A stretch of 5,173 nucleotides of DNA from IMG/VR virus record IMGVR_UViG_2740892270_000017, one strand, 5' to 3'. Below, piece by piece: positions 18-5,020 of the stretch. The notes under the pieces were generated by a model, which ran no database searches, was not told where the DNA came from, and saw nothing but the letters and a program-made list of their open reading frames with translations. Made by a program: the position numbers and the translations under genes. How positions within the stretch are numbered: position 1 is the stretch's first letter; each line of letters opens with the position of its first letter. This DNA is from a virus (taxonomy: Duplodnaviria > Heunggongvirae > Uroviricota > Caudoviricetes).

Positions 18-675
18 TTACTTTAAACACTGCTCGGTTATGTATTGCTGAGCACCTTCAAGTTGGGCCTGCATCATTACCAGTCGTTCCCGGAGGGTGA
101 AATAATCCCGTTCAGCGGTGTCTGCCAGTCGGGGGGAGGCTGCATTATCCACGCCGGAGGCGGTGGTGGCTTCACGCACTGACTGACAGACTGCTTTGAT
201 GTGCAACCGACGACGACCAGCGGCAACATCATCACGCAGAGCATCATTTTCAGCTTTCGCATCAGCTAACTCCTTCGTGTATTTTGCATCGAGCGCAGCA
301 ACATCACGCTGACGCATCTGCATGTCAGTAATGGTTGCGTTCGCCAGCTTCAGTTCTCTTGCGTTTTTGTCGCGCTGCTCTTTGTAGGTAATGGCGTTAT
401 CACGGTAATGATTAACAGCCCANNNNNNNNNNNNNNNNNNNNNNNNNNNNNNNNNNNNNNNNNNNNNNNNNNNNNNNNNNNNNNNNNNNNNNNNNNNNNN
501 NNNNNNNNNNNNNNNNNNNNNNNNNNNNNNNNNNNNNNNNNNNNNNNNNNNNNNNNNNNNNNTCGCGCTGCTCTTTGTAGGCGATGGCGTTATCACGGTA
601 ATGATTAACAGCCCACGACAGGCAGACGATGATGCAAATAACCAGAGCGGAGATAATCGCGGTTACCCTGCTCAT
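18..675 (-). CDS. Rz: Rz i-spanin (inner-membrane spanin subunit); reading frame interrupted by N run 423-562 flanked by a 53-bp direct repeat
   Basis: Minus-strand translation 563..675 gives [37 protein letters not shown] (N-terminal TM anchor) and 18..422 gives [29 protein letters not shown]...TEQCLK; both match the lambda/21 Rz protein as I recall it. ATG at 675..673 overlaps the endolysin stop TGA 674..672 (ATGA). Stop TAA at 20..18. The two visible pieces are offset by 193 nt (out of frame), so the exact structure across the gap is unresolved. Confidence 0.8.
77..262 (-). CDS. Rz1: Rz1 o-spanin (outer-membrane lipoprotein spanin subunit), embedded in the +1 frame of Rz
   Basis: 61-aa [64 protein letters not shown]: signal peptide with lipobox VVGC, Thr at +2, proline-rich mature part, wholly inside Rz in another frame. 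This is the classic lambda-type Rz/Rz1 architecture. Confidence 0.85.
370..615. repeat. 53-bp direct repeat (370-422 and 563-615, 2 mismatches) flanking N run 423-562 inside Rz
   Basis: tcgcgctgctctttgtagGTAatggcgttatcacggtaatgattaacagccca (370-422) versus tcgcgctgctctttgtagGCGatggcgttatcacggtaatgattaacagccca (563-615). Both copies encode the [11 protein letters not shown](T/A)YKEQR segment of Rz. Confidence 0.8.
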
Positions 676-1169
676 TGTTGACCCCACAAACAGACTTCAC
701 GCTCAATCTCACGACGGGTCATCAGCCCTTTCCATTGCTTACCGCCAGCATATGTCCAGCGACGTAGCTGATCACATGCGCCTTTGATATCGCCCTGGTT
801 TATTTTGCGAAGAAGCGTCGATGTTCTGAAATTACCAGCACCCACGTTGTAAACGAACGAGTAAAGAGCGCCGCGCGTTGTTTCCGGTATATCGACTTTG
901 ATGTACGGGTTAATTTGTCTGGCGACAGTGGCAAGGTCTTTATTCAAGAGTGTTTTGCATTCTGCTTTGGTATACGTTTTACCGAGCATGATGTCTTTTC
1001 CTGTATGCCCGTGACATACAGTCCATACACCAACAATATCTTTGTATGGTATGTAGCTGACACCTTCCAGACCATCGTTACCACTTGGGCCAGTGATTAA
1101 CACTGATGCTATAGCAATTGCTCCGCCACCAATAGCAGCAGCAACGACTTTTCGTAATGATGGAGGCAT
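672..1169 (-). CDS. R: SAR endolysin (phage-21 R-type lysozyme, GH24 family) with N-terminal signal-anchor-release domain
   Basis: 165-aa [60 protein letters not shown]... has a Gly/Ala-rich weakly hydrophobic N-terminus (SAR domain) followed by Glu35, Asp44 and Thr50 at the positions of the T4-lysozyme-type catalytic triad. Start ATG 1169..1167 overlaps the holin stop TAA 1171..1169 (TAATG). Confidence 0.9.
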
Positions 1170-1384
1170 TATTCACCTCTCGCAGCCTTGCGCTTATCTT
1201 CTTTAATCTTGAAATAAAGGTTTGTCAGGTACGTCAGCAGGCCAAATACCAGACTACCCAGCACACCGATTGCAGCCCACTGTGACGGAGTTACTCTATC
1301 GAGCAACTGTAAAAACCAGTAGCCAGCACTGCCTGCGGAGGTGCCGTAGGCAATGCCTGTTGAAATTTTGTCCATGGATTTCAT
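1169..1384 (-). CDS. S: Class II holin / pinholin (S21-type) with dual-start motif MKSM (antiholin S71 / holin S68)
   Basis: Translation from ATG 1384..1382 gives [71 protein letters not shown] (71 aa), two TMDs and a charged C-terminus. Strong SD GGAGGTGAGG lies directly upstream (minus strand, 1397..1388). A second Met at codon 4 gives the classic dual start. A pinholin paired with a SAR endolysin is the established phage-21 arrangement. Confidence 0.9.
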
Positions 1385-1486
1385 AGCCTCACCTCCGCAC
1401 GGAACGGATGGCATAGTTATTATGTGTAGGCTTTCAGACACATCAATCAGAGCCTTAATTGATATATATGCTGGAGACGATGCAAT

Positions 1487-1510
1487 ATAAAAAGCTCGCC
1501 GTAGCGAGCT
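1487..1510 (-). terminator. Rho-independent terminator (minus strand) upstream of the holin; candidate tR'-like late terminator
   Basis: Plus 1493-1499 agctcgc pairs with 1504-1510 gcgagct (7-bp stem, loop cgta). On the minus strand the stem is followed immediately by TTTTTATATT (1492..1483). It lies about 105 nt upstream of the S start. Confidence 0.6.
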
Positions 1511-1635: not shown

Positions 1636-2031
1636 CTAACCTCGCATGTCAAAGCCAGATTTCTGAAAATCTCTGTAGACTTCCGGATTGTTGAAGGCCG
1701 GAAATTTGGCTTTATGAGCTGCGGACTTTATCGCTTCGCAATAGGCTTTATCACCGTTACTGGTAGATATTTTTAACGCCGTGCCATCCTGAGAGAATTC
1801 CATATGCAACCTGCATTTTTTCCCTTTCCAGTTATGCGGCTCATCAAGTTTGGCATTAATTGCAGCTCTGATTCCCCGCGCTTGCGCCCCCCATTCATCC
1901 TGATCATCCCAGCGTCCTGAACTGCAACTACCTGTAGCAGTAGTTTTGTGGCAATCTGAAGGGTGTAAAGGTGTGCATCCCGCAACAAAACCGACCCAAA
2001 AAGTCAACATAACGATTTTCTTTAATCCCAC
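1636..2031 (-). CDS. Lipoprotein with divergent TolA C-terminal (domain III)-like domain; paralog of 2182..2610
   Basis: 131-aa ORF, GTG start at 2031..2029 preceded by SD GAGGAG with 6-nt spacing. Signal peptide MGLKKIVMLTFWVGFVAGC with lipobox VAGC, Thr at +2. C-terminal part ...GKKCRLHMEFSQDGTALKISTSNGDKAYCEAIKSAAHKAKFPAFNNPEVYRDFQKSGFD aligns by eye with the TolA-III-like domain of the neighbouring gene (GK.C.L, GD..C, PEVY.F). Stop TAG 1638..1636. Confidence 0.75.
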   Translation of the reverse strand: MGLKKIVMLTFWVGFVAGCTPLHPSDCHKTTATGSCSSGRWDDQDEWGAQARGIRAAINAKLDEPHNWKGKKCRLHMEFSQDGTALKISTSNGDKAYCEAIKSAAHKAKFPAFNNPEVYRDFQKSGFDMRG

Positions 2032-2181: not shown

Positions 2182-2610
2182 TCAGGGTTTAAAATCCAGC
2201 ACCCCATTTTGAAATACTTTATATACTTCCGGCGAAGGGGGGGCAGGTATATCAGCATTCTTTATCGCATTCATCGCTTCACGACATAAATCGAGGTCTC
2301 CACTTTCTCTTTTAACCTCCAGTAGAAGGCCATTCGGGGCCATATGCATTCTCAGTGTACACTCTTTTCCTGAATACTTACTCGCATCCCCGAACTGTTT
2401 TTCGATGGCGCTCTTGATTTGATGGGCATACAGACGGATATCCTCACTAACATCAGAAGTACGTTCAGATGAACTCACATACTGTGTCTCTATTGCTTTA
2501 TCGGAGTAATATGATGTACGGTCATGATAATTTGTCGATACAGCATCAGTGCACCCGATAATAATCCCACTAATAATCAACGTAAGAATTGATGCGCTAC
2601 GAAAACCCAT
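2182..2610 (-). CDS. Lipoprotein with TolA C-terminal (domain III)-like domain; predicted outer-membrane-anchored periplasmic protein
   Basis: 142-aa ORF, ATG 2610..2608 with SD GAGG upstream. Signal peptide MGFRSASILTLIISGIIIGC with lipobox IIGC, Thr at +2. The C-terminal ~85 aa, YAHQIKSAIEKQFGDASKYSGKECTLRMHMAPNGLLLEVKRESGDLDLCREAMNAIKNADIPAPPSPEVYKVFQNGVLDFKP, closely resemble the C-terminus of E. coli TolA as I recall it (...AGQIKSAIESKFYDASSYAGKTCTLRIKLAPDGMLLDIKPEGGDPALCQAALAAAKLAKIPKPPSQAVYEVFKNAPLDFKP), including the conserved Cys pair. Stop TGA 2184..2182. Confidence 0.85.
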   Translation of the reverse strand: MGFRSASILTLIISGIIIGCTDAVSTNYHDRTSYYSDKAIETQYVSSSERTSDVSEDIRLYAHQIKSAIEKQFGDASKYSGKECTLRMHMAPNGLLLEVKRESGDLDLCREAMNAIKNADIPAPPSPEVYKVFQNGVLDFKP

Positions 2611-2639
2611 TTTTCCTCACATATGTCATATAGTAAAGG

Positions 2640-2669
2640 ATTATATATACCGTTGTTTTGGACGCTCAA
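2640..2669 (-). promoter_or_regulatory. Sigma70-like promoter for the TolA-like lipoprotein gene at 2182..2610
   Basis: Minus strand: -35 TTGAGC (2669..2664), 18-nt spacer, -10 TATAAT (2645..2640) inside GTATATATAAT, about 30 nt upstream of the ATG at 2610. Sequence match only. Confidence 0.45.
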
Positions 2670-2774
2670 ACAGCGAATCAGATCAAATAAAACGCACATT
2701 TGTTAACATTTACACAAAGTCTGCGTGGGATATTCTGAAAGAATATCCATAATGTGGAGAGAATCTATTGAAGT

Positions 2775-2877
2775 GCATGGTGCCGGGTGCCTCCCGGTGA
2801 ACAAAATGTTCGTGATACCTGTCGGCGACAGAAAAGGTTAATGGTATCACCCCACCGCACAGGGGGATTCACCATGC
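2775..2877. repeat. Highly structured imperfect palindromic element, ERIC/IRU-like intergenic repeat (tentative)
   Basis: An outer 8-bp stem, gcatggtg (2775-2782) with caccatgc (2870-2877), encloses four hairpins: ccggg/cccgg (2783-2797), gaaca/tgttc (2799-2811), gtgatacc/ggtatcac (2812-2850) and cccc/gggg (2850-2866). The right end GGGGATTCAC (2863-2872) matches the terminal motif of enterobacterial ERIC repeats as I recall it, and GGGGTGA is nearby on the minus strand. Confidence 0.3.
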
Positions 2878-3200
2878 AGGAGTTTTCTTAGCAAACTCAC
2901 TGCGCGCCCGGCAACTCCCAACCACATAAAATGCGGAGTTTGTGGCATTTATGCATATAACTCGCAGGAATTATCTTAAAAAACTGATGTCGATCCGGAT
3001 TAAAAAGAAGCAGGTCATCATCAGATGACTGGAAAAAAGGAAAACAAAAAATACTCATCATACAGTTTTGATTGCAGGGATGAGCCTGCTATGCACAATA
3101 TGCAGAATATAAGCAAGATAAAAATATGCAGGCATATTATTTCGGATCTTGTTATTAACACAACCTTTTTAATAATCATTTGGCATACAATAAACCAGCC

Positions 3201-3227
3201 CAAAAAGAACCGCCTAAACAGGCGGTT
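3201..3227 (-). terminator. Rho-independent terminator-like hairpin (minus-strand orientation)
   Basis: Plus 3208-3214 aaccgcc pairs with 3221-3227 ggcggtt (7-bp stem, 6-nt loop). On the minus strand the stem is followed by CTTTTTGGG (3207..3199). Confidence 0.5.
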
Positions 3228-3496: not shown

Positions 3497-3575
3497 CAGA
3501 AAGACCAGTTGCCCAACTAGCAGCATTCTCCCCTGCTTTCCTGACGTAAAAAAACCGCATTAAGCGGTTTTTTTA
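3497..3575 (+). ncRNA. Candidate ~80-nt small RNA from the extended -10 promoter to the bidirectional terminator; antisense to the region just downstream of the Q-like gene
   Basis: Predicted start about 7 nt downstream of the -10 (around 3497); end at the T7 tract of the 3545-3577 hairpin. No ORF with an RBS lies in between. Prediction only. Confidence 0.2.
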
Positions 3576-3654: not shown

Positions 3655-3994
3655 TCAAGCCATTTTCTCAGCAAATGATTCACGCATGGGAATATATAGG
3701 GCATACTCAGCAACAGCTAACCAATTAGCAATCCGTTTTTCGCATGTGCTAAAACACCACTCTGGGTGTGCATCATTTAGCAATTCAGCCATTTTGCGCT
3801 TAGTCATCCCCCGCCCTTCATAGCGTTGCCGGAGAATGCAAATCAATCCTGGATGCTCTGCCAGCACCTCACTTATGACTCGATCAATACATAACGCCTC
3901 TGCATCAGTACAATGCGCCAGCCAGCTCTTTTGCTTGCCGTTGATCATCTCTCGCAAAAACGCTTCCAGCTCAGCTTTCTCTATTCCCGCTTTT
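3655..3994 (-). CDS. Q-like late-gene regulator (putative antiterminator), C-terminal 113 aa visible; N-terminus lies in N run 3995-4215
   Basis: Visible translation ...KAGIEKAELEAFLREMINGKQKSWLAHCTDAEALCIDRVISEVLAEHPGLICILRQRYEGRGMTKRKMAELLNDAHPEWCFSTCEKRIANWLAVAEYALYIPMRESFAEKMA, stop TGA 3657..3655. It is the last gene after the nin-type genes and before the moron/lysis region, which is the Q position in lambdoid phages, and has an HTH-like segment (GMTKRKMAELLN). The assignment rests on synteny; I cannot confirm the family from memory. Confidence 0.45.
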
Positions 3995-4215: not shown

Positions 4216-4451
4216 TTCAGCATGCATCAGGCGCAATTCTTCTTTGGTGTAATCGCTGGTTTTTACCCGCCCGTCGATTAGATCGTGGCATGAGCTACAG
4301 GCTATCGCCGCCTGCATATCATGTGGTTTTGTCGCTGTTCCGCACGTCCCCGCCAGCCTGTAATGCGCCAGCACAGAGGTTTCGGGATTGTGATTGCAGT
4401 AGCCAGGGATTCTGATCTGGCACATCTGGCCTTTAGCCGCTTTACGTAAAT
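4216..4451 (-). CDS. YbcO-like (DUF1364) Cys-rich putative nuclease, internal fragment; both ends lie in N runs
   Basis: Visible translation LRKAAKGQMCQIRIPGYCNHNPETSVLAHYRLAGTCGTATKPHDMQAAIACSSCHDLIDGRVKTSDYTKEELRLMHAE resembles E. coli DLP12 YbcO as I recall it (MADLRKAARGRECQVRIPGVCNGNPETSVLAH...IACSACHD...), including the C-x-C...C-x-x-C pattern. The start should be about 3 codons into gap 4452-4672 and the end in gap 3995-4215. Confidence 0.7.
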
Positions 4452-5020
4452 NNNNNNNNNNNNNNNNNNNNNNNNNNNNNNNNNNNNNNNNNNNNNNNNN
4501 NNNNNNNNNNNNNNNNNNNNNNNNNNNNNNNNNNNNNNNNNNNNNNNNNNNNNNNNNNNNNNNNNNNNNNNNNNNNNNNNNNNNNNNNNNNNNNNNNNNN
4601 NNNNNNNNNNNNNNNNNNNNNNNNNNNNNNNNNNNNNNNNNNNNNNNNNNNNNNNNNNNNNNNNNNNNNNNNCGCCGTATCCCGGGTTCTACGAGTCGCA
4701 ACGGTGTTAAGGTATTGCTCTGCGGCATCACTCAGGGCTGGCGTGTGTTCCCGACCAACTGATTCGCACAGGTAATCAACGAAACCAGACAGCAGTTCTC
4801 GTTCGCGAGGCGTGATCGCCCCACCGACCGGAGTCCAGTAATCGAATCCCAGTTGCAGGAGTTTGAAAAAACGCTTGTGGAATGCGTAGTTACGCACACG
4901 CTTAAAGTCTGCGTGTATCCACTCACCTATTTTGATTTGATGCAGAAAATCGCAACTCTCCGGCGTCGCCGGGAGAAGTAAACCAGAAGAGGTTTGTTTG
5001 ACCAGTTGTATATGCGCCAT
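4442..5020 (-). CDS. Lambdoid nin-region protein (possibly YbcN/DUF1367-like); N-terminal 116 aa visible (4673..5020), remainder masked
   Basis: ATG at 5020..5018; visible translation MAHIQLVKQTSSGLLLPATPESCDFLHQIKIGEWIHADFKRVRNYAFHKRFFKLLQLGFDYWTPVGGAITPRERELLSGFVDYLCESVGREHTPALSDAAEQYLNTVATRRTRDTA. If the N run has its true length, the frame ends at TAA 4444..4442 (192 aa), overlapping the expected YbcO-like start. Family assignment is from position next to the YbcO-like gene, not verified. Confidence 0.55.
   Translation of the reverse strand: MAHIQLVKQTSSGLLLPATPESCDFLHQIKIGEWIHADFKRVRNYAFHKRFFKLLQLGFDYWTPVGGAITPRERELLSGFVDYLCESVGREHTPALSDAAEQYLNTVATRRTRDTAXXXXXXXXXXXXXXXXXXXXXXXXXXXXXXXXXXXXXXXXXXXXXXXXXXXXXXXXXXXXXXXXXXXXXXXXXXFT

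Follow-up and report, generated by a model that had tools for sequence, protein, structure and literature searches.

The whole window analyzed here is a 5,173-nt stretch of the IMG/VR virus record IMGVR_UViG_2740892270_000017 (Duplodnaviria; Heunggongvirae; Uroviricota; Caudoviricetes). All of its recognizable genes lie on the minus strand and belong to a lambdoid prophage, of which they form the late-control and lysis region. Between a DUF1133/Q-like gene and a P21-type holin gene, that is, in the Q-to-S cargo slot, the window possesses a gene, hereafter gene 1, which is predicted to encode an exported lipoprotein carrying a stand-alone copy of domain III of the host envelope protein TolA (TolA-III). 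A second gene, gene 2, located 150 bp downstream of gene 1 and overlooked in the first-pass annotation of this sequence, encodes a diverged relative of the same protein. The features of the two genes are as follows (aa, amino acids; pLDDT, predicted local distance difference test score).

2182-2610, minus strand: gene 1, 142 aa, ATG start; PF06519 E 2.4e-23, TolA-III entries of the PDB E ~5e-28, phrog_5772 E 1.6e-62
2614-2618, minus strand: Shine-Dalgarno sequence GAGGA, 3 nt before the ATG of gene 1, read directly from the sequence
2551-2610, minus strand: predicted signal peptide and lipobox of gene 1 (aa 1-20), I-I-G-C with Cys20; the next codon is Thr at +2
2449-2550, minus strand: Ser/Thr/Asp/Tyr-rich linker of gene 1 (aa 21-54), predicted to be disordered (AlphaFold2 pLDDT <50 through residue 49)
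2185-2448, minus strand: TolA-III globular domain of gene 1 (aa 55-142), equivalent to E. coli TolA 334-421 without gaps
1636-2031, minus strand: gene 2, 131-aa predicted lipoprotein, paralogue of gene 1; lipobox VAGC with Cys19 and Thr at +2, diverged TolA-III

Gene 1 encodes a predicted lipoprotein with TolA domain III

The product of gene 1 starts with MGFRSASILTLIISGIIIGC, followed by TDAV, which reads as a basic n-region, a hydrophobic core and the lipobox IIGC (Cys20, Thr21). Residues G19-C20-T21 are invariant in all homologues and the remaining signal peptide is variable, and there is no Asp at +2, i.e., no inner-membrane retention signal. The lipoprotein signal peptide with Thr at +2 described in the first-pass annotation is therefore present. 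The linker, which had been put at ~40 aa, has the proposed composition (Ser, Thr and Asp together account for 47% of its residues) but is shorter, comprising residues 21-54 (~34 aa), and no match to TolA domain II was found in it with the NCBIfam TolA models.

The C-terminal domain, earlier estimated at ~85 aa, turned out to be an 88-residue match in which 52/88 positions (59%) are identical to E. coli TolA without a single gap. All of the motifs quoted at that time (QIKSAIE, CTLR, and LDFKP) are found in gene 1, as is the Cys pair, with Cys84 and Cys109 aligning with the TolA disulfide pair C363/C388. In the profile search, PF06519 (TolA C-terminal) reached 82.6 bits (gathering score, 25), and the domain also matched five crystal or NMR entries of TolA-III with E values from 5e-28 to 3e-27, including PDB 1S62, 3QDP, 2X9A, and 1TOL. 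The AlphaFold2 model of gene 1 was superimposed by Foldseek on TolA-III from the complex with g3p of phage If1 (2x9a_B), with a TM score of 0.84 and a root-mean-square deviation of 2.1 A over 88 columns. Both profile and structure comparison thus bear out the domain assignment, and the similarity of gene 1 to TolA-III is far above chance.

Compared with its variant alleles, gene 1 has a ratio of nonsynonymous to synonymous substitution rates (dN/dS) of 0.33-0.40 at dS 0.5-0.6, and it is therefore under purifying selection. Gene 1 is AT-richer than the lysis genes, as was claimed earlier, but the difference is modest: the GC content is 42.4% in gene 1 and 41.6% in the two-gene cassette, compared with 48.4% in the holin gene and 46.8% in the lysozyme gene, and the GC content at third codon positions is 0.36, 0.50, and 0.40 in gene 1, the holin gene, and the lysozyme gene, respectively.

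Gene 2 is a diverged neighbour of gene 1

Gene 2 starts with a GTG codon at 2031, which is preceded by a GAGGAG Shine-Dalgarno sequence at 2038-2043. In RefSeq, an internal ATG is used as its start, giving 124 aa, whereas with the GTG start the product gains a proper signal peptide, whose n-region is basic (MGLKK...). The gene 2 product matches PF06519 (E 1.3e-14, 54.6 bits) and phrog_5772 (E 6.7e-65), shares 29% identity with gene 1, and is identical to TolA-III at 27/88 positions, with both Cys kept. Its AlphaFold2 model has the same order of helices and strands as that of gene 1. The tether of gene 2 carries two extra Cys (C27 and C35) in a CxPLxPxxCxK...SC-like pattern, which also occurs in several other family representatives (P0049, P0073, P0131, and P0160).

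Ligand surfaces kept in gene 1

As we know, TolA domain III is needed by all group A colicins and by filamentous phages. Its ligands TolB, colicin A, colicin N, and the N1 domain of g3p (g3p-N1) are all bound by beta-strand augmentation, with TolB, colicin N, and g3p engaging beta3 and alpha2 and colicin A engaging beta2 (PMC7391070, PMC4339652). The backbone amides of TolA D418 and K420 hold g3p-N1 (PDB 1TOL), and proline at these positions abolishes the binding of colicin N and g3p-N1 (PMC4339652). In gene 1, the beta3 segment LDFKP is identical to that of TolA, D418 and K420 included, 11/16 positions of alpha2 are kept, and the colicin A box is changed conservatively (LLEVKR for LLDIKP). 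The binding of TolA to TolB is weak, with a Kd of 40-200 uM (PMC7391070), and the translocation domain of colicin N binds TolA at ~1-3 uM (PMC4339652).

Annotation and family membership

Genes 1 and 2 both belong to PHROG 5772, a family of unknown function, which had also been overlooked in the first reading. At the identical RefSeq locus (L001 12733-13161), gene 1 is named tolA, "cell envelope integrity protein TolA", by PGAP, and gene 2 is named "TolA C-terminal domain-containing protein". Of the two full-length TolA models, NF007065 gives gene 1 107.8 bits, below its cut-off of 213, and aligns only at profile positions 293-386 of 387, while TIGR02794 gives 75.6 bits, above its cut-off of 59.45, and aligns only at positions 265-362 of 362. 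The name was therefore probably assigned because domain III alone passes the TIGR02794 cut-off.

Gene 1 lacks TolA domain I, which docks to TolQ-TolR, and has a predicted cleavable lipoprotein signal peptide in its place. The helical, Ala/Lys/Glu-rich domain II is absent as well (142 aa, compared with 440 aa for an authentic Klebsiella TolA), and the gene lies outside the tolQ-tolR-tolA-tolB-pal cluster, as comparison with an authentic tolR-tolA-tolB locus makes clear. That gene 1 might be a true TolA paralogue able to substitute for TolA was rejected, since domains I and II are absent. With the symbol tolA, this prophage lipoprotein of 142 aa is systematically misnamed in hundreds of genomes and plasmids; the misleading RefSeq name should be corrected.

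With a profile score above the gathering threshold, the fold, and the disulfide, gene 1 is a member of PF06519, and gene 2 likewise by profile score and Cys pair. Both genes also show the outer-membrane lipoprotein motif [LVI][ASTVI][GAS]C without Asp at +2 (IIGC-T in gene 1 and VAGC-T in gene 2). A Pfam search of gene 1 returned TolA and TonB_2 only, with no sequence relationship to Cor, Llp, or TraT. According to previous studies, a 1,355-bp prophage-specific region of uropathogenic E. coli contains a "TolA protein, hypothetical protein" as a table entry (PMC6854850), and one Klebsiella cloacin plasmid was said to carry "TolA and TolB family proteins" (PMC10269471). Because RefSeq, Pfam, and PHROGs already annotate the domain, the similarity to TolA is not a new discovery; the lipid-anchored TolA-III family is catalogued but unnamed.

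Organization of the locus

The remaining features of the window are listed below in the order of transcription.

4442-5020, minus strand: DUF1367 gene, first in the gene order of the window
After the DUF1367 gene: masked stretch, which holds a DUF1364 gene in identical genomes
End at 3655, minus strand: DUF1133/Q-like gene
3545-3575, minus strand: A/U-flanked hairpin, candidate tR'-type terminator, ~80-110 nt past the Q-like gene; -19.7 kcal/mol, z -5.6
Between the Q-like gene and gene 1: ~1 kb without long open reading frames
2721-2907, minus strand: STnc100-family small RNA (sRNA) element ahead of gene 1; match to Rfam RF02076 with 86.6 bits (gathering score, 47) and E 3e-18
2640-2669, minus strand: candidate sigma70 promoter, TTGAGC, 18-nt spacer, TATAAT; 10/12 match to the consensus
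1493-1510, minus strand: intrinsic terminator closing the cassette just upstream of the holin gene, hairpin of -13 kcal/mol, z -5.5, then UUUUUAUAU (U-tail)
1169-1441, minus strand: P21-type holin gene, PF04971 E 4.5e-35; travels with the two-gene cassette in most related prophages; module boundaries at 1168-1182
672-1169, minus strand: lysozyme gene
Last in the gene order, minus strand: Rz gene with embedded Rz1

The Q-to-S position proposed by the first-pass annotation holds, since gene 1 lies between the Q-like gene and the holin gene, and a variant orthologue sits exactly at the stx position. The window segment is identical in a Rac-type prophage of E. coli LD39-1, which also carries recET, racC, kilR, sieB, trkG, and tfaR, and the segment is present in phage mEp460_ev081 too, where the module follows a different Q. 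The lysis set of the prophage is complete, with holin, endolysin, and Rz/Rz1.

Module boundaries were derived from 80 IMG/VR prophage fragments with gene 1, which comprise near-identical copies only. Two positions recur as ends of homology to the window, namely 2801, at the edge of the core hairpin that is conserved in STnc100, and ~1168-1182, at the holin/endolysin boundary. The mobile unit therefore consists of the 3' half of STnc100, gene 1, gene 2, the terminator, and the holin gene. At least two different Q regions precede it and different endolysins follow it, and the STnc100 element looks as if it served as a recombination linker between cargo modules. The candidate promoter lies within the module that always travels with genes 1 and 2.

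Gene 1 had been called a moron with its own sigma70-like promoter. The site in question exists, but as a pattern match that is no evidence of function: a promoter scan of the window gave 11 sigma70-like sites against 6.2 +/- 2.5 expected in shuffled sequences, which is a weak excess over chance, and the site is not conserved. The moron label remains reasonable, for these are extra genes between conserved phage genes, found in some relatives and missing from others, and their base composition deviates, if modestly; it is qualified in that the unit is a two-gene cassette, usually accompanied by the holin gene, and in that the promoter of the cassette is a pattern match only.

By analogy with lambdoid late operons, the hairpin at 3545-3575 is a candidate tR', in which case the cassette would also be within the Q-dependent late transcript. 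The STnc100 copy of the window is devoid of the U-tailed 3' hairpin of the family model, so read-through into gene 1 might be possible. Directly past the Q stop are the motifs TTGATT and TGCTATGCT, which, together with the bidirectional-looking hairpin at 3545-3575 and a weaker terminator-like site farther on (3208-3227, minus strand), resemble a pR'/tR' unit.

Distribution of gene 1, gene 2, and their relatives

Among 5426 complete E. coli genomes, gene 1 is present in 888 (16%) and gene 2 in 1269 (23%), and 525 of the gene 2 copies, at ~88% DNA identity, are on plasmids. An allele of gene 1 with 67% identity occurs alone in Stx-phage-like prophages, in the exact stx slot, where the gene order is Q, methylase, tRNA-Ile, tRNA-Arg, the gene 1 allele, and a nanS-p esterase gene. 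Such alleles are present in the regions L099 3001-3869 and L100 3001-3869, both with tRNA-Ile/tRNA-Arg upstream; in L099, nanS-p lies downstream and a prophage ompC-like porin gene is inserted between Q and the tRNAs. No tRNA was found within the window, unlike these variant loci.

For a family census, 1.84 billion cluster representatives were searched with a profile, which gave 636 matches, and the best 150 clusters (50% identity) were inspected. Of these 150 representatives, 80 are 100-170 aa long, and 54 of the 80 have a lipobox within the first 40 residues, none of them with Asp at +2. Since the lipobox recurs in 54 cluster representatives, lipid-tethered stand-alone TolA-III constitutes a diverse family.

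Plasmids are a second kind of carrier. A tblastn search of PLSDB detected TolA-III-like sequences on 1307 records (660 from Klebsiella and 553 from Escherichia), some of which are chromosome-sized and contain authentic tolA. On ~10-kb ColRNAI plasmids of Klebsiella, genes for a cloacin/colicin E3-type bacteriocin, its immunity protein, and a lysis protein are located beside a TolA-III lipoprotein gene. This lipoprotein has 123 aa, the lipobox LTAC, a PF06519 match (E 2.4e-24), and 7/8 beta3 positions kept. Its partner gene, which follows with a 4-nt overlap, encodes a 121-aa protein that combines a Sec signal peptide with the C-terminal domain of TonB (PF03544 E 9e-11), so that the pair of TolA-III and TonB C-terminal domain offers one decoy candidate per colicin import route. 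The pair corresponds to L004 9206-9939 (K. pneumoniae NZ_CP044260.1), and hundreds of such plasmids are present in PLSDB.

The gene 2 type is also carried by IncF/IncI plasmids. It was found on pO157 near psiB/psiA/hok, and on the IncI1-type plasmid pJNE141411-1 (L101 9001-9432) it comes directly after a nikB-like relaxase gene and is surrounded by transfer genes. The TolA-dependent phages Ff and If1 use F and I pili, respectively, as receptors. The relaxase-lipoprotein pair occurs as well on two contigs of metagenome-assembled genomes (L087/L088), binned as Lachnospiraceae and Treponemataceae, together with enterobacterial-type plasmid genes and, apparently on one of them, resistance genes; these contigs are probably mis-binned plasmids. 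In a Salmonella prophage, a 146-aa lipoprotein version is encoded just upstream of the holin gene.

Chromosomal relatives of gene 2 are located at variable loci in Leclercia, Klebsiella indica, Enterobacter, and Raoultella. The genome scan yielded only 11 loci because the back-translated patterns used were narrow, and eight chromosomal loci were examined for their neighbours. Defence genes are adjacent at 2/8 of these loci (L093 5737-8774 and L091 6064-8171), namely a fused AriAB (PARIS, E 1e-180) and Septu PtuA/PtuB. In Klebsiella indica, the gene 2 relative lies beside the fused AriAB and a dCMP-deaminase-like gene, and in Leclercia adecarboxylata a truncated relative lies beside Septu PtuA/PtuB. 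In three Leclercia genomes, the same lipoprotein gene is positioned past the hyc/hyf hydrogenase cluster with differing downstream cargo, which suggests an integration hotspot.

The mobile copies share 47-59% identity with host TolA-III, compared with 37-52% among each other, which fits selection for resemblance to the host domain. Comparing each mobile copy with the TolA of its own host genus was uninformative, because TolA-III of E. coli and that of Klebsiella are 91% identical.

A possible outer-membrane decoy

We tentatively favour, without granting it quite an even chance, the explanation that genes 1 and 2 encode unenergised outer-membrane TolA-III decoys, directed against Tol-dependent colicins and the g3p of filamentous phages. 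If expressed in the lysogen, their products would be processed by Sec, Lgt, and LspA and subsequently transferred by Lol to the inner leaflet of the outer membrane, where a flexible tether of ~20-35 residues would suspend TolA-III in the outer periplasm, just where invaders emerge from porins. The decoy could there capture group A colicins by the TolA-binding segments of their translocation domains, g3p by its N1 domain, and possibly also TolB by its N-terminus after a colicin has exposed it. This would arrest import and make the lysogen or plasmid host tolerant of Tol-dependent bacteriocins and of filamentous phages specific for pili. Since gene 1 is without TolA domains I and II, its product would not be coupled to TolQR and would stay unenergised, and because TolA binds TolB weakly and colicin N more tightly, a modest quantity of decoy could block invaders without crippling Tol-Pal.

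The decoy is the best supported of the explanations considered, because the same architecture occurs on bacteriocin plasmids beside a TonB C-terminal domain, because it is present on plasmids that make F or I pili, and because the plasmid and chromosomal copies are independent of lysis genes. It is further favoured by the lipobox-linker-TolA-III architecture, the ligand surfaces kept in gene 1, the behaviour of exported TolA-III in laboratory constructs, the size and consistency of the lipobox-bearing family, purifying selection, the high prevalence of the genes, and the terminator and promoter-like site at the two ends of the cassette. The idea itself had been raised in the first-pass annotation, and it is strengthened by the bacteriocin-plasmid, pilus-plasmid, and defence-locus contexts, none of which had been seen at that time.

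Several points weigh against a decoy. In gene 2, the known ligand surfaces are mostly lost (alpha2 4/16, beta3 2/8, and colicin A box 2/6), and the plasmid relatives of gene 2 likewise keep few known ligand-surface residues. The identity pattern of the mobile copies could equally reflect independent captures of host tolA. No recognised defence neighbour was found at 6/8 of the chromosomal loci, which makes this context a weak support, and no family of the PADLOC-DB v2 defence-system models matched the protein of gene 1 or gene 2. As overproduced periplasmic TolA-III makes cells leaky, a decoy may also come at a cost. Moreover, genes 1 and 2 may be made mainly in lytic growth, being probably in the Q-dependent late transcript, and the gene 1 promoter is only a candidate found by pattern matching: no promoter-like site is conserved upstream of the variant gene 1 alleles, whose upstream regions are unrelated to that of gene 1 except for a 10-nt patch. 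Finally, full-text literature searches on prophage and plasmid TolA-like proteins, decoys, CloDF13, the colicin tolerance of lysogens, and annotation phrases yielded no functional study of any member, which agrees with the earlier statement that no characterised function is known for such a protein.

The main rival to the decoy, which we consider unlikely, is that the two proteins act as a lysis or envelope accessory: being made late, they would compete for the N-terminus of TolB and switch off Tol-Pal, thereby aiding spanin rupture or vesicle release. The position of the genes on the late-gene strand between the Q-like gene and the holin gene, past the candidate tR' hairpin, speaks for such a role, as do the joint travel of the cassette with the P21-type holin gene in most related prophages and the Salmonella homologue just upstream of its holin gene. 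The beta3 strand used by TolB is conserved in gene 1, and overproduction of TolA-III in the periplasm leads to leakage of the outer membrane (PMC6195910). However, both close and distant homologues are carried by plasmids and chromosomes without lysis genes, and the lysis set of the prophage is already complete without the cassette. The affinity of TolA for TolB is very low (PMC7391070), a strong terminator stands between cassette and holin gene, and in the variant prophages nanS-p and other cargo come between gene 1 and the lysis genes.

It is improbable, though most plausible for gene 2, that the fold was repurposed for a ligand outside the Tol system, serving in conjugative entry exclusion or binding peptidoglycan, an outer-membrane protein, or, if surface-exposed in the manner of lambda Bor, a host factor. 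Exclusion lipoproteins such as TraT and TrbK typically sit among transfer genes, and such genes indeed surround the IncI1-type copy, which comes after a relaxase gene. In gene 2 and its plasmid relatives, fold and disulfide are retained along with few of the ligand contacts, and the extra Cys pattern (C27/C35) in the gene 2 tether recurs in other representatives. In contrast, gene 1 keeps the ligand surfaces of TolA well, and the Klebsiella copy, with its 7/8 beta3 positions, TonB partner, and bacteriocin operon, points to the import machinery. A functionless passenger, that is, a decaying fragment of host tolA that illegitimate recombination brought into the variable Q-to-S region, where it is carried along, is very improbable. 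The sequence does clearly descend from TolA domain III, and frameshifted or truncated alleles exist (P0010, P0031, and the truncated Leclercia copy); a decaying fragment would, however, hardly be reconciled with an added lipoprotein signal peptide and tether, an invariant lipobox, a dN/dS of 0.3-0.4 at dS 0.5-0.6, the same architecture in at least 54 clusters at 50% identity, and nearly identical copies in 16-23% of E. coli genomes.

If the decoy explanation is extended to the relatives, TolA-III lipoproteins and exported TonB C-terminal domains might constitute widespread, unrecognised "import-machinery decoys" on prophages, colicin plasmids, and conjugative plasmids. They would then provide broad, toxin-independent immunity to Tol- and Ton-dependent bacteriocins and protection from the pilus-specific filamentous phages to which a conjugative plasmid exposes its host, with the two tandem prophage copies covering different ligand sets. 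This extension is possible but doubtful.

Comparison with known systems

Gene 1 resembles E. coli TolA-III (PDB 1S62, 1TOL, 2X9A, and 3QDP/3QDR) in fold, disulfide, 59% identity, and largely kept alpha2 and beta3, but it is without domains I and II, would be lipid-anchored to the opposite membrane, and occupies a prophage cargo slot instead of the tol-pal operon. The closest laboratory counterpart is recombinant periplasmic TolA-III (Levengood-Freyermuth, Click & Webster 1993; Wan & Baneyx 1998; both cited by PMC6195910), in which the domain is likewise exported alone and competes with TolA; this export was used to make E. coli leaky and release periplasmic proteins. Unlike that construct, which was soluble and overproduced, gene 1 is natural, predicted to be lipid-tethered, and 41% diverged from the host domain. 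In the 1993 work of Levengood-Freyermuth et al., exported TolA-III reportedly also made cells colicin-tolerant.

Outer-membrane exclusion lipoproteins of mobile elements that act against phages or colicins are well known, such as Cor of phi80, N15, and HK022 and Llp of T5, which act on FhuA, and TraT of F. Like these, gene 1 would be a small outer-membrane lipoprotein of a mobile element that protects its carrier at one host entry component; whereas they bind and mask a host receptor, gene 1 would mimic a co-receptor of the periplasm, with the invader as its binding partner. Superinfection exclusion by g3p is related in that the TolA-III/g3p-N1 interface closes the Tol entry route: periplasmic g3p-N1 sequesters TolA, making cells resistant to colicin A and lowering their uptake of phage by 4 logs (PMC10424213). 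There, however, the ligand titrates the receptor and tol phenotypes appear, while here a copy of the receptor would titrate the ligand. Gene 1 also shares its slot with the known Q-to-S cargo (stx1/stx2, nanS-p, STnc100, and Pas sRNAs), with STnc100 adjacent as in Stx2 phages, but its product, a predicted periplasmic lipoprotein, would belong to bacterial envelope biology and is neither a toxin nor an esterase. A mobile lipid-anchored copy of a co-receptor would vary these known mechanisms, exclusion lipoproteins and the titration of TolA by g3p, in a new way.

The usual accounts of resistance to group A colicins and to filamentous phages invoke loss of the receptor, mutations in tol, or cognate immunity proteins. 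To these, a natural, mobile co-receptor decoy, if true, would add another mechanism, one that could contribute to the colicin tolerance of wild E. coli, which is high and broad. It would also matter for bacteriocin- and phage-based therapeutics against E. coli and Klebsiella, as the genes occur in 16-23% of complete E. coli genomes and on 660 Klebsiella plasmids of PLSDB. In addition, the genes offer natural variants of TolA-III that may separate ligand binding from TolB binding.

Other observations in the lysis region

A 53-nt segment from the 5' part of the Rz gene is present as a direct repeat (370-422 and 563-615, 96% identical) that brackets an N run at 423-562. Because this repeat flanks the first masked stretch, the Rz frame appears twice; the repeat may be a real duplication, or it may stem from a scaffold join or a masked insertion. 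The lysozyme gene beside Rz is split by IS2 in E. coli LD39-1.

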